DNA of 44,857 nucleotides, from the NCBI GenBank assembly GCA_963848635.1, contig CAWKEA010000009.1:1-44857 (forward strand), in the 5' to 3' direction. Each line of letters opens with the position of its first letter. Position 1 is the stretch's first letter. The notes beneath the pieces were generated by a model. The model worked only from the letters and a program-made list of their open reading frames with translations, was not told the DNA's origin and did no database searches. Source of the DNA: an uncultured bacterium. Lineage in GTDB: Bacteria; Patescibacteriota; Minisyncoccia; Phycocordibacterales; PALSA-1337. Shown piece by piece: positions 1 to 39,919 of the stretch. Made by a program: the position numbers and the translations under genes.

Positions 1-192
1 CGCAAAAAAGTGAAATCGCATTCCGTGGGCGAAATCGCACCATCGCAAACCACAAGTGGAGGGCGGGGCGGAATTCCTCCCCAGACCCCTCCTTCCGCCC
101 CGCCCGCTTCATTGCTGGATTTTTTTGGGATTTTCGGAATCAGGGCAAAGGGCGCACGAGGCGAAAAAACGAGGACGCGGTCGCGGACGAGT
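1..192 (-). repeat. inverted repeat IR-A, left copy (reverse complement of 1893-2084); encodes the recombinase C-terminal tail
   Basis: By-eye alignment: base x pairs with base 2085-x, with about 3-4 mismatches over ~190 nt. Similarity decays beyond ~192. Confidence 0.9.
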
Positions 193-1553
193 GGGTTCGA
201 ACCGACCTTTTGGAAAAAAGATCGTATTTTCGCAGTATCGGTACTCTCCGCCAAAATAGCGGCCTGTTTACAGTCGTTAAAAAAATTTATCACTGGTTCG
301 AACCGAATCGTCGAGACACGCGACAAACTGCTTAATTTGTCCGTAAGCGTGTGCTTTTCAGTCACAAGTTTGTTTTTAGCATTTTGATATTCTGGAAGCG
401 TCAGCACGTTCTCTAGGTATGCTGTCATAAGTTTGTCTAGCTTGACTTCAATCTCCGAAATTTCAGCATCAACTTTATCCGTCTGATTTTTCAAAAGTTT
501 GTCATTTTCAGTCCGATCTTTTTCAGTCTCGGCAATGAGCCAATCAGCAACGGCATCCGACAAGGAATGTTCCTTCAAAGCCGTCTGAATCTGCGAAGTT
601 ATAATTTCCTCACGGACATATTTCTGTGAGCAGACGCCTTTCCGTTTTGTGCATCGTAAATAGTTATGACCTTTTTGCGTTTCGGTAGTAATGAAGCATC
701 CGCACTCGGCACAGTGAAATAGTCCGCGATACGCATACGACTTCAATTCTTTTGTTTTCGGTTTGGATTTTCGCAACATAACCTCCTGAACATCATCAAA
801 GAGCTTTTTTGAGATGATAGGCTCGTGCTTACCTTCGTAAAATTCTCCACCATAGCGGATCAATCCATGGTAAAAAGGATTTTTCAAAAGATACTGATAG
901 TTAGAAATGGACAGCACCCCATCACCAGAGCCCTTGAGGCCTAGGTCGTTAATTTTTCGGCGTACCTGAGCGAATGTGAAGTTACCCGTGGCATATGCCT
1001 CGAATGTCTTTTTTACTAACACCGATTTCACCGGATCGACAACGATAGTTTTTATCTTTTTATCATTCAAATATCCAAGCGGAGCTTTCTGTGGCCAAAT
1101 TCCGTTTTTGAGTTTTTGCCTGTGCCCGCGTTTGATGTTTTCTGACAGATTGTCGACATAGTATTTACTCTGGCCAAAGGAAATTGAAAGCATGAATTTA
1201 CCCTGCGGAGTGGCGTCAAACCAGAATGTAGGAAATTTCAAGTCGGTGATTTTGCCGGTATCTACAAGATATATAATCCGTCCTCCATCAACTGAATTGC
1301 GAGCGAGTCTGTCTGGATGCCAAGCCAGTATTCCAGAAGCTTCTCCAGCTTCTATACGATCCAGCATATCTGCGAATATCGGCCTACCAGGCACTTTAGC
1401 AGTCTGTTTCTCTATGAAAGTGTCAACGACATCAATTTTCTCCTTTCTAGCAAGCTCGCGTAGCTCCGCTAGCTGATCAGGCAAGCTTCTTATCTGGTGA
1501 TCTTTGTCATCAGTGGATTTTCGAGCATAAATAAAATATTTTTTATCACTCAT
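1..1553 (-). CDS. large serine recombinase; the gene's 3' end runs off the left edge of the window
   Basis: Absent from the ORF track because there is no stop inside the window. Manual minus-strand translation from the ATG (1553-1551) gives MSDKKYFIYARKSTDDKDHQIRSLPDQ...GILAWHPDRLARNSVDGG...FHCAECGCFITTETQKGHNYLRCTKRKGVC...coiled-coil...FQKVGSNPLVRDRVLVF, open down to base 1. It shows the catalytic Ser motif (YARKST), DRLARN and a Cys-rich zinc ribbon typical of large serine recombinases. Confidence 0.85.
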   Translation of the reverse strand, partial: MSDKKYFIYARKSTDDKDHQIRSLPDQLAELRELARKEKIDVVDTFIEKQTAKVPGRPIFADMLDRIEAGEASGILAWHPDRLARNSVDGGRIIYLVDTGKITDLKFPTFWFDATPQGKFMLSISFGQSKYYVDNLSENIKRGHRQKLKNGIWPQKAPLGYLNDKKIKTIVVDPVKSVLVKKTFEAYATGNFTFAQVRRKINDLGLKGSGDGVLSISNYQYLLKNPFYHGLIRYGGEFYEGKHEPIISKKLFDDVQEVMLRKSKPKTKELKSYAYRGLFHCAECGCFITTETQKGHNYLRCTKRKGVCSQKYVREEIITSQIQTALKEHSLSDAVADWLIAETEKDRTENDKLLKNQTDKVDAEISEIEVKLDKLMTAYLENVLTLPEYQNAKNKLVTEKHTLTDKLSSLSRVSTIRFEPVINFFNDCKQAAILAESTDTAKIRSFFQKVGSNPLVRDRVLVFSPRAPFALIPKIPKKSSNEAGGAEGGVWGGIPPRPPLVVCDGAISPTECDFTFL

Positions 1554-2084: not shown

Positions 2085-2330
2085 GCAGTTTTTACTTGAA
2101 GTTCGAACATTTTTCGCTGAAAATCCGCAGGCGTGATTGTTTCGTGAATGAAATGCGGAGTCGCTTCGCTCCACTGTTTTTTGCCTCCGCCGGCTCGATC
2201 TTTTGATCGCATCGCAATCACAAAAAGGTGGAGAGGGCGGACGGAGGACTGGGGTGTGGGGGAAGGACTCCGTCCGCCCTCACTATTTGTTTTGGTCGCG
2301 CGCCGGATTGGTGATTGGGGGGGGTGGGTT
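2079..2330 (+). repeat. inverted repeat IR-B, left copy (reverse complement of 8783-9032); contiguous with IR-A right copy
   Basis: By-eye alignment shows ~10 mismatches in ~250 nt plus a homopolymer length difference (G8 here, C6 in the partner). Contains a perfect 14-bp hairpin, 2233-2246 with 2268-2281. Confidence 0.9.
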
Positions 2331-2373
2331 AGGTTACTTTTTGAGGTGTGGATTTGGCGGTATTCCTTTAATT

Positions 2374-2390
2374 GGGGGGGGTGATATACT
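2374..2390 (+). promoter_or_regulatory. G8 tract abutting an extended -10 (TGaTATACT) upstream of the giant surface-protein gene
   Basis: attGGGGGGGGTGATATACT lies 64 nt upstream of the ATG at 2454. No convincing -35 was found. Confidence 0.4.
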
Positions 2391-2453
2391 AGTAAGTAAG
2401 CAATTACAAAGTGCGAAATCACGCAATCACAAATATTACAAACTTTTAATAAC

Positions 2454-5400
2454 ATGACCCATAAACGCCATGCGATTCACGAGAGAGAGAGAGAGAGAGT
2501 AGAAGCTCCCTCTAAAATAGCTAAAAAGATTTTTCTGTGGAGCACGTTCCTCTTAGGAATTTTTTGTGTATTGGTTTTTCCTACTAAGAGTTTCGCGAGT
2601 AATGTTTGGATTCAGAGAACAGTTCCCGGAACTCCGATAATAAATAGTATTACCAATTCTTCGGACGGTAATACTATTTACTTGGCAACTGCTTCTTCAA
2701 GCACCTCTACCGGATACATTTATATCTCGACAAATAACGGAGTCAGTTTCGCTTCAAGTACCAATAATGCTGGTATTCATAGGTGGGCATCCATTACATC
2801 TTCGGGAGACGGGACTAAGGTATATGCGGCAACAGTGTGTTCAGTCTCTGCGAATTGCGGTGGCACGGCTGATTATGTATACACCTCTACGAATAGCGGT
2901 ATAACATGGAACAACCTTACATCTCTAGGAACAGCTTTAGATTGGGTCAGCGTCTCAACTTCAAATGACGGCACGAAAGTGATTGCGCAAGATAACAGCA
3001 CCCATACGTACGTCTCGGCCAACAGCGGTGCTTCATGGGCCACGACTACAGGTATCGGTAATGGCAATGTGAGCGTGTCTCCTGACGGCACAATGTTCGT
3101 GGCCACCGATAGCTCCGGTAATGTGTACGTTTCGACAAATAATGGCGCATCATGGGCGACCACGACAGCTGCAACTGTGGGAGGAGCAGTTAGATTTGTT
3201 GTTGCTACGAACGGGAATATCATATACAAGAGCGGGTATCCATACGTATATAAGTCAACGAACGGAGGCGCTTCGTGGTCAGCATTGACTGCTGTCGGAT
3301 CTACTACCTGGGCAAACATATCGGCATCTTCCGATGGCAGTCATGTCGTTGTCGCCGGGGCAAACGGCATAGATAACTTTGCATACTTGTCAGCCGACGG
3401 AGGTGCCACATGGACTTTCTATAACAATGGGCTAGGCTGGGTCTTTGCATATGCCCAAGACGGAACAAAAATCGCGGCGGCGGCAGGCAGTGCAGTGTAC
3501 GTCAATAGTCCTGTGCCGACGGTTACTACTGCGGCGGCATCGAGTATAACGGCAACAGGGGTTACTTTGAATGCCACACTCGTCTATGACGGCGGTGCCG
3601 CAGTCTCATCAACAACTGTTGAAGGTTTCAATTATGGTCTTACCACAACGTACGGTTCGGCTACTTCTACTACTGGTACGACAACGCCTGGTGCATGGTC
3701 GCAGACAGTAACAGGATTGACTTGTAATACCGTCTACTATTTCCAGTCATATGCCACCAATATTAACGGAACTGGTAATGGAACCGGGTCATATTTCAAG
3801 ACATTGCCGTGTTCCAGCAATTTTTCAATCGATCGTAGCTCGATACCAACTTCTGCGACGACCGTGATCAATCTGACTGGAAATGCTACCGGCTGGACAG
3901 CCGGAACTCCGGGCACTCCAACATTTTCAGTTTCCGGAGTTACCGGCGCATCGATATCATCTCAAACAGTATCTGATGCGACGCACGCATCGCTATCGAT
4001 AGTTACCGGTACTGCCACGGGTACATTGACAATCACTGATCCGAGTCACAGCACCACACAAACCACTCTCGTGAGCCAAGCCACGAATGTTATTGCGCCA
4101 GATGCAACGGGTATATTTCTCACTCCTGGTAGCTACGATTCAGGGACCTATGTCCAATGGGAACATACTGCCGCAGGGGCAAAGTTTAATTTCACGGGAG
4201 GCATTCTGAAAGCTGATTTGGATGAGAGCCTCTTGGTCAATGTCGGACGAGCCAAAGCCAGTTTCCCGTATATCAACTGGCGCGTTGACGGAGGATCATG
4301 GCAACGTACGCAAGCGTATCCAGATTCAACAACAACGCAAGTAATGACGTTGGCAACGGGGCTATCGACCACAACGACCCATTCGGCTGAAGTCCGTTTC
4401 GAGCAAGGGTCTGAAACTGATACTTGGACTCCACAGGATGCAGTCAACCTTACAGGCTGGGAAGTACAGAGCGGAAGCGCGATATCCGCGCCTTCGCCTG
4501 AAGCCAGCACTACTGTTTCAGCCGCGGGCGTTTCGTTGGGACTTCGACCGAAACGCATGATGATTTTTGGAGATTCGATAACGCGCGGATACAATGCAGA
4601 GTCCAGTTCGACCGCACCAGGACAAGATCTTACAGGGGCAGGACATACATTCGCGCTTGATAGCTGGGGACCATTATTTGCTCAAGCCCTAGACGCTGAA
4701 GTAGGCATCGTAGCATATAGCGGTCAAGGTTGGCGTCACTTTATGACCAATGGCGGACCGGCATTCCCCGTCTCATATCCGATGTATGATTCTACGCACT
4801 CAAGGACGATGCCCTCAAATCTTGACTATGTGGTTGTAGCGCTGTCGGTAAATGATAGTACCGCATATAACATGGCCAATACTGTCTCTACGTGGCTTAC
4901 AAATGTCCGTGCCGCAGTAGGAGCAAGCACGTATATATTTGTAGCGCCAAACTTAGGCGATGTAAGTTCGACAATCGTCAACAATGTCGACTCGGGAGTA
5001 AATGCATATAAAGCGGCAAATCCCACAGATACGAAGGTATTCATAATTGATCCGGGAGGTAATTTCATGGGCACGCCACCAGGGACATATTGGTATCAGG
5101 GCACCGTGCATCCTAACAATCTCGGTCATGCCCTGCTCGCTTCTGACTTAGCAACTTTGGCCGTTGCCGATGTGCCGACGGTCATATCTAGCATCGCCTC
5201 AAGCACTACGAGCACGAGTGTTACGATCACCTGGACGACAGACAGGGCGGCTACGAGTCTTGTAAATTATGGCACGACCGCATCATATACAGCCTCGTCA
5301 ACATTCAGCGGAAGTCTGACACTCTCTCACAGCGTGACCATATCTAGTCTCTCGCCTTTGACGACGTATCACTTCCAGATATCTTCGATCGATACCGCTT

Positions 5401-7436
5401 CATCAACAGCAACCTCCAGCGATCTTACATTCACGACACCCTCTAGTGTCACTGCTCCGACGCTTCTAGTGCCCACATTCTCCGGCGTGACCCAAACCGG
5501 AGCTACCGCTTCAAGCACGATCAGCGCGACAGGAGGAGCAAACGCGACTGTTGAAGGTTTTGCTTGGGGCACAAATACCTCGTATGCTCTCGGCACCACT
5601 TCATCGAGCGGTTCATTCGGAATATCGGATTTCTCGAATGCCACAACCACTCTTACTTGCGGCACTACTTACCATGTCCGCGCTTACGCCACCAACTCCG
5701 GAGGTACAGGATATAGCTCTGACGCAAGCACGACAACAAGCCCATGCAATGCCACGACATATACTTTCACTGGACCATCGAATGGTAACGCCGGGAGCGC
5801 ATCTACCATCTTCACCGTGACGCCAAATGGGCCATATAACAGCACGATCACCCTGACACCGACGGGAGGTTTCGGCCTTTCTCCAACTATATTGACATTC
5901 TCAAACTCAAGCGCTCCGCAAACTTTCACCATCACCCCGACAGTCGCAGGCTCGATCACTCTCACACCTACCGACAATGGAGGACTGACTGATGCTTCAC
6001 CGCTCACCTATACGGCTAACGCTGTTGTTCCCGGACAACCGACTTCTGTCACCGCCGCAACCTCAACTCCGAATCAGGCCACGGTCACCTTCTCCGCTCC
6101 AGGATTTAATGGCGGTTCTACCATCCTCTACTACCTCGCCTCCTCAACCCCAGGCAATTTCACGGGAACTTCAAGCGGTGCCCCCATCGTCGTCTCGAGC
6201 CTCACGAACGGCACTTCATATACCTTCGCCGTCTACGCCGTGAATGCGGCCGGCACGAGCACTCCTTCTTCGGCTTCCAATGCAGTGACACCTATCGGCG
6301 TGCCCGGCGCTCCGACGGGAGCGGTCGCCACAGCCGGCAATACCCAGGCGGTAGTTAACTTTAGCGCACCAGGGTCGACCGGCGGCAGTCAGATCACCGG
6401 CTATACAGTGACATCAAGTCCTGTCGGAGGCACTGATACTAATGCAGGTACGACTGCTCTCACCCATACCGTGACGGGCCTCGCTAATGGAACGCCGTAT
6501 ACTTTCACTGTGACTGCCACCAATGTCGTCGGTACAGGAAGTGCTTCCAGCGCATCATCTCCGGTTACTCCTTCTACTGTTGCGGCCGTGTCAACTAACG
6601 TGGTTACAAACATCGCTTCAACCAGCGCGACATTGAGCGGTTCGATCACTTCGACCGGAGGTGCCGATGCTAATCAACATGGTTTTGCTTACAGCACCGA
6701 TCAGAATCTGATAAGTTCCGTTTCCACGACGACGTTAGGTTCGTTCACAGGTACGGGTACCTTCACGAGTTCCGTGACCGGACTTACGTCTAATACCACC
6801 TATTATGTGCGCACATATTCCGTCAATGCTTCAGGCACGACCACTGGCTCAATCATCTCCTTCCTGACCTTGCCTGCGGTTCCAACCATGACCACTCAAA
6901 CTCCAACAGCTGGATCAGGCATCTTCTTCACGGCTAATGGAAACATCACCGCGACTGCTGTGAATGCCACTGCCCGTGGCTTCGTCTATGGCACTACTCT
7001 GGCATACGGAGCGACCACAACCTCAAGCGGCTCATTCGGCACGGGCGCCTACACCGCTACGATCACCGGCCTTACTTGTAACACGCTCTATCATATCGCT
7101 TCATACGCCGTGAATACCGGAGGCACAGGCTATGGTTCTGATCAAACTATCACGACCGGTGTATGTACGAAGCCGACATTGACCGTGCAAGTGGCTTCTG
7201 GCATTACGACGACTGCGGCTACTCTAAACGGCTCCATGACCGCTGACGGCAACGCCTCCTCTACAGTTGAAGGATTTAATTGGGGTACGGACACCAGCTA
7301 CGGTCAGGTAGCCTCCGCCAGCGGAACCTTCGGCATTGGATCTTTCTCGCAATCGTTGTCTAGTCTGACTTGCGGCACGACATATCACTTCCAAGTCTAT
7401 CGCTACCAACATCGCAGGACAGGGGACCTCGACTGA
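2454..7436 (+). CDS. giant cell-surface protein: N-terminal signal anchor, BNR/Asp-box (sortilin-like) beta-propeller repeats, SGNH/GDSL hydrolase domain and many FN3-like repeats. It is truncated by a frameshift and continues in ORF 7549-7938.
   Basis: Repeated S-x-(D/N)-x-G-x-(S/T)-W motifs (YVSTNNGASW, YTSTNSGITW, YKSTNGGASW, LSADGGATW). GDSL block MMIFGDSITRGYN and block V GTVHPNNLGH. At least 10 repeats of the type VEGFxWG...Y....S..G.F.....GLTCxTxYHxxAYATNxxGTGY, plus classic FN3 (PGxPTxVTA...FTV.A.N..G). Confidence 0.85.
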   Translation: MTHKRHAIHERERERVEAPSKIAKKIFLWSTFLLGIFCVLVFPTKSFASNVWIQRTVPGTPIINSITNSSDGNTIYLATASSSTSTGYIYISTNNGVSFASSTNNAGIHRWASITSSGDGTKVYAATVCSVSANCGGTADYVYTSTNSGITWNNLTSLGTALDWVSVSTSNDGTKVIAQDNSTHTYVSANSGASWATTTGIGNGNVSVSPDGTMFVATDSSGNVYVSTNNGASWATTTAATVGGAVRFVVATNGNIIYKSGYPYVYKSTNGGASWSALTAVGSTTWANISASSDGSHVVVAGANGIDNFAYLSADGGATWTFYNNGLGWVFAYAQDGTKIAAAAGSAVYVNSPVPTVTTAAASSITATGVTLNATLVYDGGAAVSSTTVEGFNYGLTTTYGSATSTTGTTTPGAWSQTVTGLTCNTVYYFQSYATNINGTGNGTGSYFKTLPCSSNFSIDRSSIPTSATTVINLTGNATGWTAGTPGTPTFSVSGVTGASISSQTVSDATHASLSIVTGTATGTLTITDPSHSTTQTTLVSQATNVIAPDATGIFLTPGSYDSGTYVQWEHTAAGAKFNFTGGILKADLDESLLVNVGRAKASFPYINWRVDGGSWQRTQAYPDSTTTQVMTLATGLSTTTTHSAEVRFEQGSETDTWTPQDAVNLTGWEVQSGSAISAPSPEASTTVSAAGVSLGLRPKRMMIFGDSITRGYNAESSSTAPGQDLTGAGHTFALDSWGPLFAQALDAEVGIVAYSGQGWRHFMTNGGPAFPVSYPMYDSTHSRTMPSNLDYVVVALSVNDSTAYNMANTVSTWLTNVRAAVGASTYIFVAPNLGDVSSTIVNNVDSGVNAYKAANPTDTKVFIIDPGGNFMGTPPGTYWYQGTVHPNNLGHALLASDLATLAVADVPTVISSIASSTTSTSVTITWTTDRAATSLVNYGTTASYTASSTFSGSLTLSHSVTISSLSPLTTYHFQISSIDTASSTATSSDLTFTTPSSVTAPTLLVPTFSGVTQTGATASSTISATGGANATVEGFAWGTNTSYALGTTSSSGSFGISDFSNATTTLTCGTTYHVRAYATNSGGTGYSSDASTTTSPCNATTYTFTGPSNGNAGSASTIFTVTPNGPYNSTITLTPTGGFGLSPTILTFSNSSAPQTFTITPTVAGSITLTPTDNGGLTDASPLTYTANAVVPGQPTSVTAATSTPNQATVTFSAPGFNGGSTILYYLASSTPGNFTGTSSGAPIVVSSLTNGTSYTFAVYAVNAAGTSTPSSASNAVTPIGVPGAPTGAVATAGNTQAVVNFSAPGSTGGSQITGYTVTSSPVGGTDTNAGTTALTHTVTGLANGTPYTFTVTATNVVGTGSASSASSPVTPSTVAAVSTNVVTNIASTSATLSGSITSTGGADANQHGFAYSTDQNLISSVSTTTLGSFTGTGTFTSSVTGLTSNTTYYVRTYSVNASGTTTGSIISFLTLPAVPTMTTQTPTAGSGIFFTANGNITATAVNATARGFVYGTTLAYGATTTSSGSFGTGAYTATITGLTCNTLYHIASYAVNTGGTGYGSDQTITTGVCTKPTLTVQVASGITTTAATLNGSMTADGNASSTVEGFNWGTDTSYGQVASASGTFGIGSFSQSLSSLTCGTTYHFQVYRYQHRRTGDLD
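2480..2498 (+). repeat. (GA)9 dinucleotide microsatellite inside the 5' coding region of the giant gene
   Basis: cacGAGAGAGAGAGAGAGAGAGta encodes HERERERV. It sits between the start codon and the signal-anchor helix. Confidence 0.95.
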
Positions 7437-7548
7437 CCAATCGGTCATAACTTCGGCGTGCCCTGTAACTGCCACGCCTACAGTTACCACAAGCGTCAGC
7501 TCCGGAGGAGGCGGCAGTGCCTCAAGCCAAGTTTCTAATCTTCTCTCC

Positions 7549-7938
7549 ATGGGCTTCACCTCTCTGGCCCAACAAGTTGCCAAGCAATACGGCTTGACGA
7601 TCCCGAACACACCAGAGACGGTCCCATCGACGCCATCCACTCCGATAGCTCCTGCATCAGGAGGCCAGTCGTTCACTCGAACGTTGAGAGTCGGCGTGAC
7701 AAACACTGACGTCAAAAGACTGCAGATCTTCCTGAATCAGCAAGGCTTCACGGTCGCCAAGAAGGGCGCTGGCTCTCCTGGACACGAGACGACCTACTTT
7801 GGCCCGGCTACCAAAGTGGCTCTTATGAAATTCCAGCTTGCTTATAAATCACAGACTCTCGACCCGCAAGAACTGAAAGCACCAACAGGGTTTTTCGGAG
7901 TGGATACGATGAAGGCGGTGAACAAGTTGGTGAAGTGA
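7549..7938 (+). CDS. peptidoglycan-binding (PG_binding_1-like) domain protein; almost certainly the displaced C-terminus of the giant protein
   Basis: LRVGVTNTDVKRLQIFLNQQGFTVAKKGAGSPGHETTYFGPATKVALMKFQ matches the PGB1 pattern. This frame is open back to 7402, where it continues the FN3-like repeat consensus (YATNIAGQGTSTDQ). Confidence 0.8.
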   Translation: MGFTSLAQQVAKQYGLTIPNTPETVPSTPSTPIAPASGGQSFTRTLRVGVTNTDVKRLQIFLNQQGFTVAKKGAGSPGHETTYFGPATKVALMKFQLAYKSQTLDPQELKAPTGFFGVDTMKAVNKLVK

Positions 7939-8554: not shown

Positions 8555-8582
8555 GTGCGTTTCTGATTTACCACCGAACTCG

Positions 8583-8725
8583 GTCGAGAAGCGGCCGACC
8601 TCCGCTTCTTCCATCAACCGTTCTTCGCGTCCGGCGGAATGTCGGTGCGGCGAAATGCAATGAAGCCGCACGGACTGACGCTGGACGCGTCACATTCCTC
8701 CGTTGAAGCGGAAGTGGGCCGCTTC
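8583..8725 (+). repeat. structured element E2, same family and same orientation as E1
   Basis: The 5' 47 nt has 43/47 identity to E1 1659-1705. The last 22 nt is identical to the E1 3' end. The ~68 nt core is unrelated to E1 but self-complementary (cgcgtcc/ggacgcg; gtcggtgcggc/gccgcacggac). Confidence 0.75.
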
Positions 8726-8749
8726 AAGCTTCAAAACCTGTGCTAAAAT

Positions 8750-8779
8750 GCTTGTGGCTCAATTCCACCAATTGAGCCA
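8750..8779 (+). repeat. hairpin repeat hp2 (cttgtggctcaat-tccacc-aattgagccac)
   Basis: Direct repeat of hp1, on the other side of E2. Confidence 0.8.
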
Positions 8780-8782
8780 CAC

Positions 8783-9032
8783 CCTTCCCCCCAATCACCA
8801 ATCCGGCGCACAGCCAAAACAAATAGTGAGGGCGGACGGAGTCCTTCCCCCACACCCCCAGGCCTCCGTCCGCCCTCTCCACCTTTTTGTGATTGCGATG
8901 CGATCAGAAGATTGAGCCGGCGGAGGCAAAAAACAGTGGAGCGAAGCGACTCCGCATTTCATTCACGAAACAATCACGCCTGCGGATTTTCAGCGAAAAA
9001 AGTTCGAACTTCAAGTAAAAACTGCCGCAAAA
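8783..9032 (-). repeat. inverted repeat IR-B, right copy
   Basis: Reverse complement of 2079-2330. Carries the same 14-bp hairpin (8828-8841 with 8864-8877), followed by a T5 run on the + strand. Confidence 0.9.
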
Positions 9033-9392
9033 TAATGAACCCGAGCTATGCGAGGGTGAATTTATTTTGCGTGAGAGAGCGATGCGACTGCTCGCATCGC
9101 GTGATGGGATTCGAAAAGGTTCTCCCAAATTTTCGAAAAGTGAGCGTAGCGAGCTTTGAGAAAATGGGAAACCTGTACTGAAGCCGTAGGCTTCGAATCC
9201 CATCCTCTCCGCACTTGGATTTTGGTATCGGATGACCCTGAGGGCTATGTAAAACAAGGGTCGTTTGGAATCGTTCGAATCCCGCAAAGGTACACCCCTC
9301 TGCGGGATTCGAACTTTTAGCTGAAGTATCCTCTTTTAGAGCAGACATCATCCTTTAAATATAGTCAAAAATATGCTAGGTTAAGTCCAATT

Positions 9393-9953
9393 ATGCTTCT
9401 AAAAAGAATCAGAGAAATATCGAATATCGGAAGATTCTGCAGCTGCAAAGGCATCGCTGGTATTGAATTTTCTCCAGTGACGATAATCTTTGCCAATAAT
9501 GGAAATGGCAAAAGTACCTTTACGAGCATCCTCAGATCATTTCAAACGGGAAACAACAATATCCTCATCGGCAAAAAGACCTTGGGTAGCAGCGGTTCTA
9601 AAAAAGTCGAGATTGACTTTGAGGACGCAGGAAAAACACTGACGGCAAAGTTTGAGAACAAGAAATGGAATAGCACCCCAGATGAGAAGATTCATATTTT
9701 CGATACCAAGTTCATAGCTGAGAATGTCTACGATGGAGAGAATATGGATGATGACCACAAGGCAAACATGCATCGTGTCGTTGTCGGCGCCGAAGGTAAA
9801 AAATATGCCGAAGCAGTAAATGATTTCATGGGGCAGGTGAAAAAATGCGAGCAAACCAAAAAAGATTCTTCTTTACAATACTCCGCATCTCCATTCTCCA
9901 GAATATATACGATTGAAAAATTCATCGCGTTGTCAAAGAATACACATGTTTGA
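9393..9953 (+). CDS. AAA_13-type (RloC/PrrC-like) ATPase, N-terminal fragment with Walker A
   Basis: VTIIFANNGNGKSTF is a Walker A motif. The N-terminal layout matches AAA_13 ATPases. It ends at a stop overlapping the next ORF in another frame. Confidence 0.7.
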   Translation: MLLKRIREISNIGRFCSCKGIAGIEFSPVTIIFANNGNGKSTFTSILRSFQTGNNNILIGKKTLGSSGSKKVEIDFEDAGKTLTAKFENKKWNSTPDEKIHIFDTKFIAENVYDGENMDDDHKANMHRVVVGAEGKKYAEAVNDFMGQVKKCEQTKKDSSLQYSASPFSRIYTIEKFIALSKNTHV

Positions 9954-11671
9954 AAGATATTGAGGGAAAAAGAAAGGAGCTACAGTTCGCCAATCAATTC
10001 AATAAACCCGCTGACCTGAGACTCAAGTCTCCTGACCTTTCAGCGATCACGACAACACTAGAGAAGAAGATTGATTCCTTGCATGACGACGTAGAAAAAA
10101 AGATAAAGAAACATGTGGAAAAGCATACATCTGTACCCGATGTCGGCCTACCTGTACTCAATACCATCAACAATATCAGAAAGGGTGATGCATGCCCTTT
10201 CTGCGGGCAAGACACGTCAGCGGTCTCCGATCTCATGGATGCCTACCGAGTGTACTTCGATAAATCGTACCAAGACCTCCAAAAGGAAATCGCTGAGACT
10301 CTAGCTGAATTCAAGAGTTGGGATATTGACGGCGAATTAAAGATTCTTCTCCAAGAGATCGAGGAATGGCATAAAATATTAAATAGCCAAGACTTATATG
10401 ACAAGCTCGTAGCACGTATCAAGGCAAGTGCTCTCAAGAAAAATAAGGCTAATTTATTGCTACAGATAGAAAAGAAAAGTAAGGATTTCAATTATAAGGT
10501 GCCTCAAGGTTCGATTGATCTTGTCTCTGAAAGTATATCTCAAGTCCAAACCGAGATTGCTGCATACAATGCCACTATCGGCGCTTTCAAGGGAAAGATT
10601 AGCAGTAAAAAGCCTGATGAGCTCGAAAAAGAATTACAGATACTCGAAATCGCAAGGGATCGCCATTCTACGAAGTGGGACACTTTCTGTGGAAATTATA
10701 TTAAAAATGAAGAGGCTACCAAGAAAATAAAAGCCGGCCGTAAAAAAGCTATGGACGATTTGTCGGCATATTCTCAAAAGACTTTTGCAGCATATCAATC
10801 TTCTATCAATACTGTACTGGAAAATATCGGGGCTGACTTCAAGATAAAGGATTTGTCGGAGCAGAAAGACCTCAGAAAAGCAGAGGCCATATTCTGCGGT
10901 TTTGCTCTGGAATTTTTTGGTCAACACAAGGTCGACATCTCTAATTCCGATGATAAGCCGCATTTCAAAAATACCCTCAGTGAGGGCGATAAAAGCTCCT
11001 TGGCTTTCGCGCTCTTTATTTCAATCCTTTCACACAATGACAAACTCAAAGGCTGCATGGTTGTCTTCGATGATCCTATCTCTAGCTTTGATGCTGACAG
11101 GAAAAAAGCTACGGCAAAGTTGCTATTTTCACTTACGAATAGCAAAGGAGATAAACCAGCTCAGATCATTGTGCTTACTCATGAATCTGGCTTCTTGGTC
11201 AGACTGAATAAAGAATTCGGCGGTGACGCTCTTTACCTGAAAATAGCACCCAATGGTCTGAGTGGAGTAATCAAGCAGAGCAATATCGAGCGACTCGATG
11301 TGTATGAGGCCTTCCTAAAGCCGGGAGCTTTTGAGGCGCTAGATAAAATCAAGAAATGCCTCGATGGTACCACCGTCATCGATAAGAAATCTCATAGCGA
11401 ATGCCGTACGATCCTAGAGAATGCCCTAGAGGCGAAATATTATCTTGAACTTAAGGACAATATCTCGAAACATGCCGGATTGGGTGGCTATATCGATACT
11501 CTTACTACGGCAGGTCTAATGAGTCAGGCGCTTAGTACTGAATTCAAAAAACTGCTCCCCGATTTACACGAGCCACACCACAGTACTTCAGATGCTAGCA
11601 CTCAAGCTAATTCGGATGGAGATATCAAAAATATTCTAAAAACCTCACTCAGTCTATTAAAGAAGTTGTAG
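9950..11671 (+). CDS. AAA_13-type (RloC/PrrC-like) ATPase, C-terminal 573 codons: zinc-hook-like CPFC in a coiled coil, ABC signature, Walker B, and a possible anticodon-nuclease-like tail
   Basis: GDACPFCGQD; long coiled-coil region; LSEGDKSSLAFALF (signature-like); CMVVFDDPISSFD (Walker B); VLTHES (H-loop). The C-terminal CRTILENALE...LPDLHEPHHS resembles the R-x3-E...H pattern of PrrC/RloC nuclease domains. The only available start is TTG. Confidence 0.7.
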   Translation: MKDIEGKRKELQFANQFNKPADLRLKSPDLSAITTTLEKKIDSLHDDVEKKIKKHVEKHTSVPDVGLPVLNTINNIRKGDACPFCGQDTSAVSDLMDAYRVYFDKSYQDLQKEIAETLAEFKSWDIDGELKILLQEIEEWHKILNSQDLYDKLVARIKASALKKNKANLLLQIEKKSKDFNYKVPQGSIDLVSESISQVQTEIAAYNATIGAFKGKISSKKPDELEKELQILEIARDRHSTKWDTFCGNYIKNEEATKKIKAGRKKAMDDLSAYSQKTFAAYQSSINTVLENIGADFKIKDLSEQKDLRKAEAIFCGFALEFFGQHKVDISNSDDKPHFKNTLSEGDKSSLAFALFISILSHNDKLKGCMVVFDDPISSFDADRKKATAKLLFSLTNSKGDKPAQIIVLTHESGFLVRLNKEFGGDALYLKIAPNGLSGVIKQSNIERLDVYEAFLKPGAFEALDKIKKCLDGTTVIDKKSHSECRTILENALEAKYYLELKDNISKHAGLGGYIDTLTTAGLMSQALSTEFKKLLPDLHEPHHSTSDASTQANSDGDIKNILKTSLSLLKKL

Positions 11672-11684
11672 CCACATGTTGTAC

Positions 11685-12152
11685 TTATCTGATGAATTCT
11701 TTGAGCAGGGTCAGATATTTTTCTTGTAGCTCTTTACTCACCATTTTTTCAGATAGTCGCATTGGAGTAACGTTGTCTTTCATCAAGTCAGTACAAAAAT
11801 CAAAATAAAATCCTGAGGGTGTTGCGATAAATATGTGGGCAAGTTTCCAACGCTCATAAATTTCTGTCGCATTCTTTTTGATGTCATCCATATCGACATG
11901 TGATCTATACTTCACCTCAACCAAAGAGACGGATTTCGGGTTATGCGATACGAGTGCAAAATCGGGGGCGTTCCTTACGTTTTCCAGAAGCTTCTTGTAT
12001 TCAGGTGTCCCTGTGTACTGCATTAGTTCGGGGACGATTGTCTCATAGCCAAATGGGATAACAGTGTAGTTGCCTGTGTCACGGAACATTTGGTCAAAAA
12101 TAAGTTCAGCTATTTTTCCCTTAATGAGTTGTTTGGAGAAGTCTTTTTGCAT
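11685..12152 (-). CDS. small PD-(D/E)xK-fold nuclease-like protein
   Basis: GKIAELIFDQMF ... PDFALV ... VSLVEVKYRS fits the E...PD...(D/E)xK restriction-endonuclease-like motif order. Confidence 0.55.
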   Translation of the reverse strand: MQKDFSKQLIKGKIAELIFDQMFRDTGNYTVIPFGYETIVPELMQYTGTPEYKKLLENVRNAPDFALVSHNPKSVSLVEVKYRSHVDMDDIKKNATEIYERWKLAHIFIATPSGFYFDFCTDLMKDNVTPMRLSEKMVSKELQEKYLTLLKEFIR

Positions 12153-12254
12153 GATGTTTATTATACCTCATCATATAATAAAAGTATGAGGGAGCATCCT
12201 TGCCCGCCCTCTTTTTTATTGACCTTACCCTCGCCTCGGCATAGAATAGATTTC

Positions 12255-13850
12255 ATGTCTAATCCTGATACAAATAATGATACAGAAAATCCCCCTGTTA
12301 TTTTGGTAGACGGCAGCCTTTCAAAAGAGCGCTGTGAATTTTTGCTCTCATACCTAGGAAGCGAGAGCGATAAGCTTGAACGAAAGGAGTTCGGAGTTCC
12401 AGCTTCGTCATCAGAAAAGAGCCAGCTGGCCAAGGCCATAATTGCCATGGCTAATTCTGATGGCGGATATATTCTCCTTGGCATTAATGATGCCAAGGTT
12501 GTAAAAGGTATCAGGAACGTCGATCTGGATCCAGCTAAGATTAATGATCTCGCATCTTCTTTTGCCAAACCAGAAATAAAGAATCTGACCACAGTCGTCT
12601 ATGAAAAGGACGCCCTCAAGGTAGGTATCATCTTTGTGCCTCCGAGCGACAATGTTCCACATATTACGATCAAGGAGAGTGATAAATTGAATAAGAATGT
12701 TATCTATGTAAGGCACTCTGGACAGTCTGAGCCTGCGAACCATGAGGACATGGAAAAGCTGATACTGAAGGCGGTTATAAAAAGACAGAAAGAATTGATG
12801 CGTCATCTTGAGGAGACAGAGTTGCAAAAGGATGTCCGCATGATCAAGGAGCATCTACTTGGGAAAAAGGAGGCCGAGAAGCCTGATTTTTTGGTGGTCG
12901 ATGAAGAAGCTTTTGTGGCTAAGATTGATGCGCTGTTCACTGATGAAAATATCTCATCGATTAAAAAGGTCATAAAGCAGCTTTCCAAGGAGATAGTTTC
13001 GGTGTGGAAGTCCACCAAGGGCATGGATAAATCTATCGTGCTCGAGACGAAAGTCCTACGCTTCATTCCGTTGCTCAACAAGCTCACCTACGTGATGATA
13101 TTGGCGGTTGAAAATAAGATGCACGAGAAAATATTTCCTGACTGGGCGGAGGCCGTTCGTATCATATATGAATTATCAAATAAGAAGGATCTCGGCATTT
13201 CACAGATCGATGAATGGGTAACACAAGGAAACCAATTCATCAAAGCGAAAGATCACCTGACGTATACGGTTCCCGAAAAAGAAGTCATTAGCAGACTGCA
13301 TATTTTGTCGGCCTACGCTTTTAAACGCAAGGAGTATTCTTTGATTAAAAAGATAGCTGATATAGAGGTTGAGACGGTTCATGGGAACAAGTCCTATAAT
13401 GAGGCTGTCATGATGCACCCCAATTATTCACATGGTAGTGGTGAAGGAAACCTCGTCACGCTTTTTGATGAGGCAAGGGAGTTGATGACACAGAATGTAA
13501 TCTTTTTTAATTTTTTCGATAATGAGATTGAGGAGAGTTTGGACAGTCTACTTAGGGCAGATCTGCTTATTGGGTTTTCCTATTCCTTAGTTAGTCAAGT
13601 TAGACATAGCGGACATCGTCATTTTATTAATTTTGCTCGTTTTTATCCGTCGCGAGTCTGGTCGCTCATTGAAAGCATGCGTGACAATCAAAAGTATCTG
13701 ACTGATGGATTCCCAACCTATACCTTGGAGCAATTAAAAAAATACATCAATGAAGTCATTGATTTCGCGAATAAAGCGTACCCAATGATAAGCGACTGGG
13801 GTGGCTATACTTACAAGGATCTTTTTCCAGATAAAGCTGCCACTCAGTAG
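12255..13850 (+). CDS. Schlafen/AlbA_2-like (divergent AAA, putative nucleic-acid-binding) domain protein with an unknown ~350 aa C-terminal region
   Basis: SESDKLERKEFGV...SQLAKAIIAMANSDGGYILLGINDAKVVKGI matches the AlbA_2 core (E.K....l.k.i.AfaN..GG.l.iGv.d.g.v.G). The ORF is open from 12090, but that part overlaps the divergent gene, so ATG 12255 (MSNPDT) is preferred. Confidence 0.6.
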   Translation: MSNPDTNNDTENPPVILVDGSLSKERCEFLLSYLGSESDKLERKEFGVPASSSEKSQLAKAIIAMANSDGGYILLGINDAKVVKGIRNVDLDPAKINDLASSFAKPEIKNLTTVVYEKDALKVGIIFVPPSDNVPHITIKESDKLNKNVIYVRHSGQSEPANHEDMEKLILKAVIKRQKELMRHLEETELQKDVRMIKEHLLGKKEAEKPDFLVVDEEAFVAKIDALFTDENISSIKKVIKQLSKEIVSVWKSTKGMDKSIVLETKVLRFIPLLNKLTYVMILAVENKMHEKIFPDWAEAVRIIYELSNKKDLGISQIDEWVTQGNQFIKAKDHLTYTVPEKEVISRLHILSAYAFKRKEYSLIKKIADIEVETVHGNKSYNEAVMMHPNYSHGSGEGNLVTLFDEARELMTQNVIFFNFFDNEIEESLDSLLRADLLIGFSYSLVSQVRHSGHRHFINFARFYPSRVWSLIESMRDNQKYLTDGFPTYTLEQLKKYINEVIDFANKAYPMISDWGGYTYKDLFPDKAATQ

Positions 13851-19799: not shown

Positions 19800-20357
19800 T
19801 TAGTTGCCAGCGGTAGGACAAGTCGAGGAAGAGTGTGCGATGGCTGATGGATTCGTATTTCCTGTCGAATCGATGCAGAAATATTTGGTGCTGCTCACCA
19901 GCTGGCCATATATAGCAAATGAAATTACGTTCGGACTCGCTACGCCTCCTGTGGTGCTGTTCGTACCGACGAATATTTGTATCGCTCCGCCCTGCGAGAC
20001 GGCATCGTTCCATTGTGTTGCCAGATTTGCGCTAGCGGCTGTTGTTGTGGCGGCGGCAGGGCTACCAGCGGTGTACCCGGAGTTGCTTATTGTAAAGCTT
20101 CCACCAGCGGGACTGCCAGCGGTGGCTCCATAAAGATCAGTATAAACCGAGCTATTCTGCCCAGTCGAAAGAATATTACGGATCTGTTGAACGTCAGCGA
20201 CGACACGGGTATCCGATCCTCTTTTTCGGGCTGATTGCAAGCTTGCCAAAATGATCGCTGACAGCAAACCTATGATGGCGATGACGACAAGCAGTTCTAT
20301 CAAGGTAAAAGCGCTGTCTTTCTGCGCAGGACCTTTTTTCTTTTGAGAGGGAGACAT
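19800..20357 (-). CDS. type IV pilin-like protein (prepilin N-terminal cleavage/methylation domain)
   Basis: FTLIELLVVIAIIGLLSAIILASLQSARKRG. The C-terminus is paralogous to ORF 28347-28844. The ORF is open to 20399, but a TATAAT at 20402-20407 (minus strand) argues for ATG 20357. Confidence 0.8.
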   Translation of the reverse strand: MSPSQKKKGPAQKDSAFTLIELLVVIAIIGLLSAIILASLQSARKRGSDTRVVADVQQIRNILSTGQNSSVYTDLYGATAGSPAGGSFTISNSGYTAGSPAAATTTAASANLATQWNDAVSQGGAIQIFVGTNSTTGGVASPNVISFAIYGQLVSSTKYFCIDSTGNTNPSAIAHSSSTCPTAGN

Positions 20358-20490
20358 TTTTATTAATGCTGATTTATTAATGTTTAAAACGACGTGCATA
20401 GATTATACAACACTTGCGCCTCAAATAATATATCTGGGGTATTGATATTCAGCCGGGTGGAGGAGTTTCACTTTTGCCATGTACAGTAAT

Positions 20491-25211: not shown

Positions 25212-25244
25212 GATTCCCTCCTTAATCGGAGGGAATCGTTTTTA
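25212..25244 (+). terminator. rho-independent terminator after secY; it overlaps the 3' end of the convergent toxin gene
   Basis: gattccctcc-ttaatc-ggagggaatc, followed by gttttta. Confidence 0.7.
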
Positions 25245-25650
25245 TGGAAGAAAGTATCCCTTCGACTTTATTTCTTAGTACAATGAATTCTTCCTGTTTT
25301 AGCCTAAAGATGAGGCGCAACAGCCTCTTGTTGCTTATGATTTTAATTTGAGATGTCAGTACGGTCTGTAATTTACCCCGATACCTCATCGTGTAGAATT
25401 CATTTTCTGTTCTTATTGTGCTTGTTATCGGCAATGCCCACAAGAGATCATCGTTCACTTTCTTTAAAACAATGATCGGCCTTTCGAAAAGCTCATTTTT
25501 ACCATCTATTTCATGACCAATATTAACTCCAAGGGCAGCCCACCAGACTTCTCCCTCCAGAAAGAAAAAGTCCTCAGGAGGGATGCGTTCCTCTATGAGT
25601 TTTTTGTGCCTATTCCATTCGTTATATTTTTTGACATGCTTTTTACCCAT
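25222..25650 (-). CDS. PemK/MazF-family toxin-like protein (orphan)
   Basis: FFLEGEVWWAALGVNIGHEIDGKNELFERPIIVLKK...LWALPITST matches the MazF/PemK core pattern (GeiWw..lG.N.G.E..GK....RPvlVl.....l...PlTs). Confidence 0.65.
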   Translation of the reverse strand: MGKKHVKKYNEWNRHKKLIEERIPPEDFFFLEGEVWWAALGVNIGHEIDGKNELFERPIIVLKKVNDDLLWALPITSTIRTENEFYTMRYRGKLQTVLTSQIKIISNKRLLRLIFRLKQEEFIVLRNKVEGILSSIKTIPSD

Positions 25651-28346: not shown

Positions 28347-28844
28347 ATGAAAAGAAAAAATGTAAAAGGCGGTTTCACCCTCATCGAATTGCTCGTCGTC
28401 ATCGCCATCATCGGTATATTGTCCTCGATCGTCTTGGTCAGCTTGCAGTCAGCTAGAAAGAAGGGTACTGATACGCGTGTTATCGCAGACGTTCAGCAGA
28501 CTCGCGACGCTCTTGAGACTGGCTATACTGGTACTTATTATCCTGATTTGGGCAACAATAACTCGAATGCTGTGGTTGCAAGTAATTCGTCGTGTACTAT
28601 CGCCAATTGGAACAATGACACTGCCTCTCAAGGTTCAGCATTGAATACGCAACTCGGAGATGCTTGCGCACAGGGCGGCACAAATGATATTAGTATATTT
28701 GTAGCACCTGTTACTGCCTATAATACCGTAAATGCCTACGCTATCTATGGTAAGCTTGTCAGTAGCAGTAACTATTTCTGCATCGATTCAACAGGCAAGA
28801 CTAATCCTGCTACGAGCACCAACGCAGGTATCACCTGTCAGTAG
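28347..28844 (+). CDS. type IV pilin-like protein
   Basis: MKRKNVKGGFTLIELLVVIAIIGILSSIVLVSLQSARKKG: G/F cleavage site and Glu at +5. Confidence 0.88.
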   Translation: MKRKNVKGGFTLIELLVVIAIIGILSSIVLVSLQSARKKGTDTRVIADVQQTRDALETGYTGTYYPDLGNNNSNAVVASNSSCTIANWNNDTASQGSALNTQLGDACAQGGTNDISIFVAPVTAYNTVNAYAIYGKLVSSSNYFCIDSTGKTNPATSTNAGITCQ

Positions 28845-32530: not shown

Positions 32531-32852
32531 TTGCATTTGGTTACAGCGAATAGCCGTCACGGGTAACCCCCCCAAATGCTGAGTTAATTATAGCAAGAAG
32601 AAACCATCAGTCAATACAGGTGAGCCTTTTTCATTCTGTGGCGCCGCTTCGATAATCCCTAGGACGAGCCCGTGGCGATTGTGCTCAATCGTCTGGTGAA
32701 TCGCCTATGCGGCATCTCGAAGATCCTCTGTGAGAACTACAGGAATATATCATGTAGCAAAATGACCTACTGGGGTCGCTCACTTTGTTCGCTCCTTATT
32801 CCTGTGGACATCCCTTGACGCAAAGAACATTTATTCTTGCTATACTTGCACC

Positions 32853-38469: not shown

Positions 38470-38635
38470 ATATATGCGGAACGCATGAGAATGTTGACGA
38501 GCCCAACGCACCGATATCTATAGAAATAGAGTAAGATAAAGGTAAGAAATGGGATAAGCGCGTATACGCATGTGCATTCATATGCACTGCGATGGCACAG
38601 TCTCGTTCCTGCCGCCACAACCAATTTTTAATAAC

Positions 38636-39919
38636 ATGGACAAAAAACCACATATCGTCATCGTAGGCGGCGGATTCGGCGGCGTCTATGCGGCCAAGCG
38701 CCTCGTCCGAGAGCTTGGCGAGACTGCCGACATAACGCTCATCAGCCGCGACAATTATTTTTTATTCACGCCTCTTTTGCATGAAGTCGCAACGGGCAGT
38801 CTATCGCATCAATCTGTCGTCGAGCCGATAGCTGAAATATTCCGCGGCACGCACGTGCATTTTTGCCAGGGCGAGGTCCATCAGATAGACTTCGGGGCAA
38901 AGACAGTTGCCTCCGATAATTGCTCTTTTGTCTATGACTATATCGTCATTGCATCCGGCGCGAAAACAAACACATATGGCATACCAGGCGTAGCAGAGAA
39001 CGCCCTCATGCTGAAAAGCCTGTCGGACGCAGTTGCTCTGCGCAGGCGGGTCATAGAATCAATCAAAAAAGCCTCACACACTGATGATCAATCAGAGCGA
39101 AGGCGCCTGCTTTCCTTTATTGTCGTCGGCGGAGGCCCAACCGGCGTCGAGCTTGCCGCTGAGCTCGCAGAATTCGTATTTCAAGTCGCCAAATCGTACT
39201 ATGCTTCCGCTCTTTCAACGCACGAGATATCCATAACGCTCATCGCTTCCGGTCCTGGCCTCGTTCCGCAGTTCTCGACCAAAGTCAGTTCGAAAGCCTT
39301 GTCAGTTTTGAATGGAAAAGGGATCGAAGTCCTTCTCGGAACGACTGTTCTGAAAGTCTCGCCAGACGGCGTCGACATAAAAGACGCCATAAAGGCCGCT
39401 ACTGCTCCGACGCGATGTATCCCTGCAGGCACTATTATTTGGGTCGCCGGCGTCACAGCGAGCTTTCCGGAGATAAAAGGGCAGGCGCACATGCATAAAA
39501 GCGGTCGGCTCATGGTCAATCAGTTTCTTCAAGTGGAAGGCTATCCTGAAGCTTTTGCGCTCGGTGACGGCGCTATCATGCCGATAAAAGAAGGCGAGCC
39601 TCCCGTGCCTCAACTTGCACAGACAGCCGTGCAAGAAGCAGGGATCGTAGCGGAGAATATATCTGCCTTGATAGGATCCGAAAAAAGCCAAACGTCGCCC
39701 CTTGTTCCTTTTATATATCATTCCAAAGGGATGCTCATCTCTCTCGGCTCATGGCAAGCGGCAGGAGATATCTTTGGCATCCATCCATCAGGCCCTTTCA
39801 TGTGGTTTCTTTGGCGCACGATTTATCTCTTCAAGTTCAATTCATGGAGAAAACGCTTGTCCATCGTCGTCGAATGGACAATAGGCCTATTTTCGCCGAG
39901 AGACATAAGCGAAATCTGA
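38636..39919 (+). CDS. ndh: type II NADH dehydrogenase (NDH-2) / pyridine nucleotide-disulfide oxidoreductase
   Basis: HIVIVGGGFGGVYAAK and FIVVGGGPTGVELAAE are two Rossmann dinucleotide folds. The ORF is open from 38570; ATG 38636. Confidence 0.8.
   Translation: MDKKPHIVIVGGGFGGVYAAKRLVRELGETADITLISRDNYFLFTPLLHEVATGSLSHQSVVEPIAEIFRGTHVHFCQGEVHQIDFGAKTVASDNCSFVYDYIVIASGAKTNTYGIPGVAENALMLKSLSDAVALRRRVIESIKKASHTDDQSERRRLLSFIVVGGGPTGVELAAELAEFVFQVAKSYYASALSTHEISITLIASGPGLVPQFSTKVSSKALSVLNGKGIEVLLGTTVLKVSPDGVDIKDAIKAATAPTRCIPAGTIIWVAGVTASFPEIKGQAHMHKSGRLMVNQFLQVEGYPEAFALGDGAIMPIKEGEPPVPQLAQTAVQEAGIVAENISALIGSEKSQTSPLVPFIYHSKGMLISLGSWQAAGDIFGIHPSGPFMWFLWRTIYLFKFNSWRKRLSIVVEWTIGLFSPRDISEI

Follow-up and report, generated by a model that had tools for sequence, protein, structure and literature searches.

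In Neisseria, the opa genes form a multigene family with conserved 5' ends, in which a (CTCTT)n repeat lies within the signal-peptide coding region and the copies switch independently. The vlp and vsa genes of Mycoplasma, wall-less or reduced-genome organisms, belong to families whose members have almost identical promoters and leaders; vlp is switched by a promoter poly-A tract, and vsa by a site-specific recombination event that inverts DNA at a conserved 5' box beside a recombinase gene. Here, we describe a locus to be compared with these systems, in a 44.8 kb stretch of DNA from a bacterium of the candidate phyla radiation (CPR; Patescibacteria). Its central element is a (GA)9 dinucleotide tract at the 5' end of a gene for a giant secreted protein, preceded by two start codons in different frames and by two runs of eight G (G8). 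The whole stretch was analyzed and is called the window below. The opa repeat is a pentanucleotide in the hydrophobic core, whereas the repeat of the window is a dinucleotide in the charged n-region of the predicted signal peptide. In contrast to vlp and vsa, no inverted second leader copy lies nearby, and the promoter tract does not make up the whole spacer.

In Helicobacter pylori, sabA carries a promoter poly-T tract and 5' CT repeats, and strains and isolates have in-frame and out-of-frame lengths (PMC2715451). The promoter tract of sabA acts as a rheostat (PMC4081817). The window locus resembles sabA in combining a putative promoter homopolymer with a 5' dinucleotide repeat. However, the poly-T tract of sabA is 13-19 nt long and its effects were measured, whereas a G7/G8 tract with a putative role abuts the extended -10 element here. 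Heterogeneity of sabA was found within strains by cloning and amplified fragment length polymorphism (AFLP), whereas the differences described here are between samples only; the host of sabA is a pathogen of the Campylobacterota and that of the present locus an environmental CPR bacterium. In Haemophilus influenzae, licA (lic1) carries a CAAT repeat; upstream of it, two of the three reading frames have a start codon, so that the gene is on at two of the length classes and off at the third (PMC2212159). The window locus likewise has start codons in two frames before its repeat. The licA repeat is a tetranucleotide in the gene of a cytoplasmic choline kinase, and both of its starts were tied to phenotype, whereas the present repeat is a dinucleotide and the use of both starts is predicted.

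CPR bacteria have very few regulators, and their presumed lifestyle is attachment to host cells. We know of no described mechanism by which these bacteria vary their surface in finding hosts or evading phages. In a Gracilibacteria (BD1-5) genome, a hypervariable PTD-repeat surface gene contains an in-frame 9-nt repeat array with synonymous variation (PMC6851277). This is surface-protein variability in CPR, but not an on/off frame switch. Full-text literature searches returned only this in-frame repeat and no report of repeat-driven phase variation in CPR, in agreement with an earlier note on this DNA, whose author was aware of no such description.

The GA tract and its two start codons

Our preferred reading, which we consider moderately probable, is that the tract is a translational switch that works by strand slippage and uses two start codons. 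It would belong to the shared 5' cassette of a secreted-protein gene family and possibly be overlaid by a promoter homopolymer. The features concerned are listed below.

2317-2324, plus strand: G8 tract at the inner end of a 252-nt inverted repeat (direct reading and regular expression).
2374-2381, plus strand: G8 tract followed immediately by the extended -10 TGATATACT at 2382-2390 (direct reading and regular expression).
2454-2456, plus strand: ATG in frame 0, in frame with the gene when n = 0 mod 3 (6, 9, 12).
2470-2472, plus strand: second ATG, +1 frame; matches the gene frame if n = 2 mod 3 (5, 8, 11).
2481-2499, plus strand: (GA)9 (2481-2498) plus G (2499), codons 10-16 (ERERER-V) of the giant gene, the proposed frame switch.
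2454-2597, plus strand: predicted signal peptide, by inspection, with a long charged n-region including the ER repeat, the hydrophobic core IFLWSTFLLGIFCVLVF, and SFA preceding the probable site of cleavage.
2454-7938, plus strand: giant secreted-protein gene, with a BNR/sortilin-type propeller, fn3 repeats, a GDSL/SGNH hydrolase and a C-terminal PG_binding_1 domain.

The three tracts fall within 183 bases. Direct reading and a regular-expression search found them where the earlier note had placed them, except that the GA tract starts at 2481 and not at 2480, which is a C. The two G8 tracts are the only G or C runs of at least 8 in the window, and the GA tract is its only dinucleotide repeat of more than five units. 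Among 300 dinucleotide-preserving shuffles of the window, at least two G8/C8 runs occurred in 8% and any dinucleotide repeat of at least six units in 5%. The background set of 523 kb from 80 related Paceibacteria loci contained one G/C run of at least 8 and no dinucleotide repeat of more than five units. Because of these shuffle rates and the rarity in related loci, the close spacing of the three tracts is not due to chance.

As at classical contingency loci, the GA tract is a perfect repeat whose unit is not a multiple of three, it lies in 5' coding sequence after the start codon, and it is far longer and rarer than the genome background. The probability that ERERER is spelled solely by GAG and AGA was about 2e-4 under the codon usage of the window. 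Therefore, the GA repeat is a property of the DNA and not a by-product of the peptide.

The 5' end was rebuilt in silico with n = 5-13 GA units. With n = 6, 9 or 12, ATG2454 translates across (ER)n into the signal peptide. With n = 5, 8 or 11, ATG2470 enters the gene frame and gives the product MRFT(RE)nRVEAPSK... With n = 7, 10 or 13, both starts yield peptides of 13-18 aa that end at TAG 2500 or TAA 2513. These two codons (TAG at 2500-2502 and TAA at 2513-2515) lie inside the leader and close both wrong frames, and for n = 1 mod 3 the stops are reached at most 17 nt past the tract.

The reading of the open reading frame (ORF) confirmed that the GA tract lies between the start codon at 2454 and the signal-peptide helix, and that no in-frame ATG follows before the helix. 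The same was true of GTG and TTG; the first such codon is TTG 2571, inside the helix. A true translation start downstream of the tract, a possibility raised in the earlier note itself, was rejected, since no canonical start codon precedes the helix. Thus, out-of-frame lengths remove the product through early stops with no canonical restart. The earlier claim that a change of one GA unit shifts the frame needs one correction: gain gives the off state, but upon loss of one unit the gene may stay on via ATG2470. This second ATG, which the earlier note had overlooked, enters the frame in that case, so the gene can be on in two length classes out of three.

In the proposed mechanism, transcription probably begins a few bases after the extended -10, and the mRNA would carry two ATGs in different frames (2454 and 2470) with the tract after both. 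The tract would then act as a three-state switch. At n = 0 mod 3, which includes the n = 9 of the window, ATG2454 would read (ER)n into the signal peptide (on); at n = 2 mod 3, ATG2470 would supply the signal-peptide reading instead (on); at n = 1 mod 3, both readings would stop and a protein with a signal peptide would be impossible (off). Replication slippage, the presumed cause, would alter n by one unit and shift the gene between these states. Several leader-headed surface proteins could switch independently in this way.

The two start codons were compared among the upstream sequences that precede the tract in other contigs. The frame-0 ATG is kept in six different, unrelated upstream variants, 5-8 codons before GCG ATT CAC. 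The +1-frame ATG is kept in 6/6 variants as xATG(NNN)CGATTCAC, and the frame-0 amino acids that span it vary between the variants (H-A, H-V, H-G and Y-D). Since both ATGs are kept in six variants with differing frame-0 residues, selection appears to act on both start codons. Starts in two frames before the tract are the arrangement of the licA type, and both may be used in translation. The context of ATG2454, TTTTAATAACATG, is common to the likely NDH-2 start at 38636. Around that start (38620-38653), the context ACCAATTTTTAATAACATG resembles that of ATG2454 with 76% identity over 34 nt, so that 38636, and not 38570, is the likely start of the NDH-2 gene.

The ORF at 2454-7436 starts with MTHKRHAIHERERERVEAPSKIAKKIFLWSTFLLGIFCVLVFPTKSFA and its product has 1660 aa. 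In the window copy, an extra A at 7399, a non-repeat site, ends the ORF at 7436 and severs the C-terminal PG_binding_1 domain, which is found in the ORF at 7549-7938. Contig L001 (99.8% identical, from another run) and a contig from metagenome X1 do not have this A and read on to 7938. Because read-through to 7938 adds the PG_binding_1 domain, the intact protein of about 1827 aa is probably wall-bound. The A at 7399 reflects a genuine frameshift or else a mistake in the assembly. A secreted or surface location is consistent with the signal peptide, with the fn3, GDSL and BNR/sortilin-like domains, and with the PG_binding_1 tail of the intact allele.

An exact-product look-up of the giant protein returned no record, and a look-up of the neighbouring 190-aa gene returned one 2-kb contig, L001, which covers the 3' end only. 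A protein search with the first 357 aa found only BNR/sortilin-type propellers at no more than 37% identity. The first 80 aa gave zero candidates, and an exhaustive representative search with the first 52 aa found the window's own protein only.

Tract lengths and the shared leader in other metagenomes

Only four public runs contained this locus, all of them peat metagenomes. Every run holding it was kept as assembler contigs, many at 2-5x depth. The runs were retrieved via 31-mers of the (GA)9 allele, and the wider leader pattern was seen at lower stringency.

Two independent peat metagenomes contained (GA)10 at the window locus. These were a 322-nt contig of X1 (2370-2689, six mismatches) and a 151-nt contig of X3 (2408-2556, one mismatch), both 98-99% alike to the window and both predicted to be off. 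An 865-nt contig of X2 matched 2471-3233 at 94% and carried (GA)9; its sequence upstream of 2471 was unrelated (...CCTATATTAACCATATGAAATATCATGT, with the in-frame reading MKYHVAIHERER). Whole-unit alleles in near-identical DNA, off alleles included, were thus observed between samples. The slipped-strand frame switch that had been claimed for the GA tract is supported by the tract position, the lack of a restart codon, the immediate stops and the whole-unit natural alleles including (GA)10. On this reading, slippage would be the cause of the length change, and switching would also take place within one population.

The sequence around the tract was conserved as a leader beyond this locus.

2470-2517 (core 2481-2517), plus strand: conserved leader module ATGCGATTCAC-(GA)n-GTAGAAGCTCCCTCTAAAA, with 0-3 mismatches over 37-48 nt.
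Leader signature: (GA)n followed by GTAGAAGCTCCCTCT.

The leader was found in peat (X3, X8, X10, X11 and X12), lake water (X7 and X14) and groundwater (X9). The sequence on both sides of it was unlike the window and unlike between contigs, and several different gene bodies are represented. A comparison of tract lengths, which the earlier note had proposed for related MAGs, gave 7, 8, 9, 10 and 12 units at other loci in metagenome contigs, in addition to the same-locus (GA)10 of X1 and X3. Across the leader contigs, length 9 was the mode, 7 and 12 occurred once each, 8 occurred twice, and 10 occurred six times in all, including X8 at 15.8x, X10 at 6x and X11 at 7.8x. One leader variant showed an in-frame loss of 3 nt. 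Past 2517, every variant was open in frame 0 and encoded a K/N-rich stretch, as expected for the n-regions of signal peptides.

Lake metagenome X7 has four contigs, 2.4-6.9 kb long and each at about 14x, that start at the leader and enter different gene bodies. The summed leader depth of X7 is about 93, which against the contig depth of about 14x fits roughly six leader-bearing genes per genome, if the leader copies belong to one ~14x genome. These data suggest that the leader cassette heads a family of secreted-protein genes in related populations, a gene-family membership that is deduced from short contigs only.

The length differences could also reflect gene decay or artefact. In that case, the tract would have arisen by chance or through an ER peptide, and its lengths would be fixed mutations in dispensable genes or errors of assembly or sequencing at a difficult repeat, with no selected switch behind them. 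The frameshift at the non-repeat site 7399 of the window copy fits such a view, as do the depth of only 2-5x for many supporting contigs, the contig level of the data and the neighbouring AAA_13 gene, which also looks split and so indicates other frame breaks in the assembly or the genome. However, X1 and X3 carry (GA)10 independently of each other at the same locus, and X8, X10 and X11 show it again at 6-16x. The tract of 19-21 nt is shorter than the assembler word length, so every word spans it. Furthermore, the tract and its flanks are kept at the nucleotide level across loci and habitats while the surroundings differ, the codon choice is improbable, and two start codons are conserved in two frames. 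We therefore regard decay or artefact as unlikely.

A small hairpin is predicted at 2492-2513, in which GCUCCCUCU, a short way past the GA tract, pairs with the last part of that tract. The fold of 2396-2530 has -18.2 kcal/mol and z = -2.1. This hairpin may be the reason for the conserved bases after the tract, or it may aid slippage.

A further explanation is that the conserved element is a protein or RNA signal, either an (ER)nVEAPSK motif for sorting or maturation or the hairpin between the GA tract and its downstream partner, which would control translation; the length would then matter in threes only. The hairpin score, the in-frame 3-nt loss and the frame-0 peptide AIH(ER)nVEAPSK, which is kept before different gene bodies, are in line with it. 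In contrast, many alleles (7, 8 and 10) are not multiples of three. A constraint on the peptide would permit synonymous changes, yet the DNA is nearly invariant, with 0-3 mismatches in 37-48 nt. Rfam returned no family at the gathering score and only noise at E<1. This explanation is considered very unlikely, and the frame switch is kept as the preferred reading.

The leader was also sought in genome collections. A scan with leader 20-mers gave zero matches in 185,579 species-representative genomes, and two matches in JGI metagenome contigs were rejected as chance (an lpxH-like gene and a GC-rich stretch). The leader core was absent from the viral contigs searched, and the 80 fetched Paceibacteria loci contained neither the leader nor the promoter module described below.

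The window SecY has 92% identity to the SecY of one Patescibacteria metagenome-assembled genome (MAG) and 53-76% to those of many Paceibacteria/Parcubacteria MAGs (labels Kaiser-, Adler-, Taylor-, Nomurabacteria and similar). These matches bear out the CPR origin claimed earlier and point to a Paceibacteria-type CPR bacterium. A tRNA scan found none. In the metagenomes that hold leader contigs, the secY region was present in short pieces only, 80-88% alike to the window.

The putative promoter G tract, the inverted repeats and the neighbouring genes

The second G8 tract belongs to a conserved promoter-like module.

2357-2394, plus strand: promoter module of 38 nt, GCGGTATTCCTTTAATT-G(7/8)-TGATATACT-AGTA, with the extended -10 at 2382-2390.

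The module is conserved at a second locus in X8, X10 and X12 (peat), with G7 in place of G8. At this second locus, the sequence before the module is unlike the window, and 74 unlike letters follow it before the leader begins; the upstream hexamer is TTGAGC at a spacing of 24-25 nt. Many window genes are preceded by TGnTAnAnT, with or without TTGACx 17 nt upstream, and TGATATACT fits this -10, which is the usual one of the organism. A canonical sigma-70 scan of 1500-2700 found no site, and no -35 lies at 16-18 nt from TGATATACT. The X1 contig starts at 2370, so no second copy of this locus crosses the promoter G tract cleanly.

A -35 at normal spacing is thus absent, and modulation of transcription by the G tract, as by a promoter homopolymer, is plausible, if weakly indicated. 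Of the earlier claims on this tract, the position against an extended -10 was borne out, and the module proved to be conserved with G7 elsewhere, while its role as a switch is plausible only. An origin of the poly-G as a sequencing artefact was rejected, because unique sequence flanks these internal tracts and the second of them recurs in independent runs.

A C7 run at 32567-32573, which reads G7 on the minus strand, follows a good promoter of that strand, TTGACT-17-TGCTATAAT, at a distance of about 14 nt. It is intergenic, and no obvious gene lies behind this promoter. Most window genes have no Shine-Dalgarno sequence, and in several of them a TGnTAnAAT -10 precedes the ATG by only 6-10 nt, for example 19800-20399(-), 25222-25650(-), 32099, 32853 and 39939. 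Because the -10 sits so near the ATG in these genes, leaderless mRNAs are suggested to be common in this organism.

The first G8 tract lies at the edge of an inverted repeat of 252 nt (2071-2322 / 8787-9039), whose arms are 96-97% complementary and bracket the giant gene together with a small HTH gene (6.46 kb). Its partner in the right arm is C6 at 8787-8792. The left arm reads GGTGATT-G8-TGGGT and the reverse complement of the right arm GGTGATT-G6-AAGGGTG, a difference that may have arisen by slippage or by substitution at the homology edge. The two G8 tracts share an identical 13-nt direct repeat, ATTGGGGGGGGTG (2314-2326 and 2371-2383, 57 nt apart), and the right arm of the inverted repeat ends in the related ATTGGGGGG. 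Most of the 252-nt repeat is a high-copy mosaic of intergenic elements at 20-40-fold the gene's depth in the peat runs, and its variants diverge after about 2293. No contig in any run extends across 2304-2356.

This tract had also been put forward as a switch. Its place at the repeat end and the shorter C6 partner were both found as described; the switch role is without support, since the homology ends there and no contig crosses the tract. The first G8 is most likely the edge of a repeated intergenic element. The surroundings of the repeat (1500-2300 and 8570-9070) are a mosaic of GC-rich hairpin elements with many variants in peat metagenomes, and in one variant 2128-2227 is replaced by 8 nt.

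A large serine recombinase gene (<1-1553, minus strand) with Resolvase, Recombinase and Zn_ribbon_recom domains extends past the window start. It has its own promoter, TTGACT-17-TGGTAAAAT, just before the ATG at 1553, and is framed by an inverted repeat of 211 nt (1-211 / 1874-2084, 95% complementary). A site-specific recombinase gene thus adjoins the variable gene, as in cassette-shuffling systems. The leader, perhaps with ATTGGGGGGGGTG, might accordingly be a crossover site for this serine recombinase or for gene conversion, of the Mycoplasma pulmonis vsa type, and the change in tract length would be secondary. The recombinase gene lies about 900 nt upstream of the giant gene and is divergent from it. 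In addition, the blocks of homology have sharp limits, at 2470/2471/2481 on one side and 2501/2514/2517/2519 on the other; in X2 another 5' end precedes the same gene body, and contigs break at the leader. However, no second leader copy was found in either orientation in the window. Promoter and gene both lie between the arms of the 252-nt inverted repeat, so that inversion would not uncouple them, and no strand-switch joints were observed at the borders of this repeat. Contig breaks at any repeat of at least 31 nt are expected from the assembler alone. A recombination handle is therefore judged quite improbable as the main explanation. The 6.46-kb inverted-repeat segment was likewise rejected as a promoter-inversion switch, since neither arm separates the promoter from the gene.

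Beyond the right arm, an AAA_13 ATPase is apparently split into the ORFs 9393-9953 and 9950-11671 and is followed by a Schlafen/AlbA_2 protein (12090-13850). The region 9393-13850 looks like a small defence-type island beside the variable surface gene. Elsewhere in the window, two type IV pilin-like genes in opposite orientation have stretches that are 72-78% similar (19849-20314 and 28369-28807). The gene at 19800-20399 has an N_methyl motif, and the two genes are diverged paralogues.

The proposed frame switch in CPR biology

Several points weigh against the preferred reading, its promoter part included. The remaining 42 kb of the window has no further tract of such kind, and the protein collections searched hold no leader-bearing protein. 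The gene may be decaying, given the non-repeat frameshift at 7399, and the (GA)10 alleles could then be those of ordinary pseudogenes. The hexamer nearest to the -10, TTGGCG, lies at 25 nt and would lie at 17 nt if the G tract were removed. None of the RNA-seq runs searched contained the locus, and the transcription start is a prediction. Retrieval by (GA)9 31-mers biases the length spectrum. The lengths themselves come from contigs, many at 2-5x, from which heterogeneity within a population and reversibility are extrapolated, and where n differs between loci or strains, the difference could be a fixed one.

The mechanism of the preferred reading, frame switching by slippage at the GA tract, is classical; what is new is the lineage, together with an unexpected shared cassette. 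The cassette is kept near base-for-base in peat, lake and groundwater populations, while housekeeping genes in the recovered contigs are only about 80-88% like the window. This contrast would point to spread of the cassette by recombination or to strong selection at the DNA level.

As a tentative extension, which we hold to be possible rather than probable, some Patescibacteria (Paceibacteria) may carry a phasome, that is, a set of secreted or surface genes each under the same mobile or gene-converted 5' cassette. This cassette would consist of a poly-G promoter, two starts in two frames, (GA)n and built-in stops for the wrong frames. Every cell would then show a random subset of its surface proteins.

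The value of the finding lies in the lineage, the shared cassette and its testability. If the switch is real, tract length in reads would be a simple countable marker of surface variation in uncultured populations, and the switch would explain why such genes often look broken or fragment assemblies in metagenome-assembled genomes. It would also provide a first indication of classic phase variation in CPR/Patescibacteria. These bacteria would then share the bet-hedging device of the small-genome pathogens Helicobacter, Haemophilus, Neisseria and Mycoplasma.

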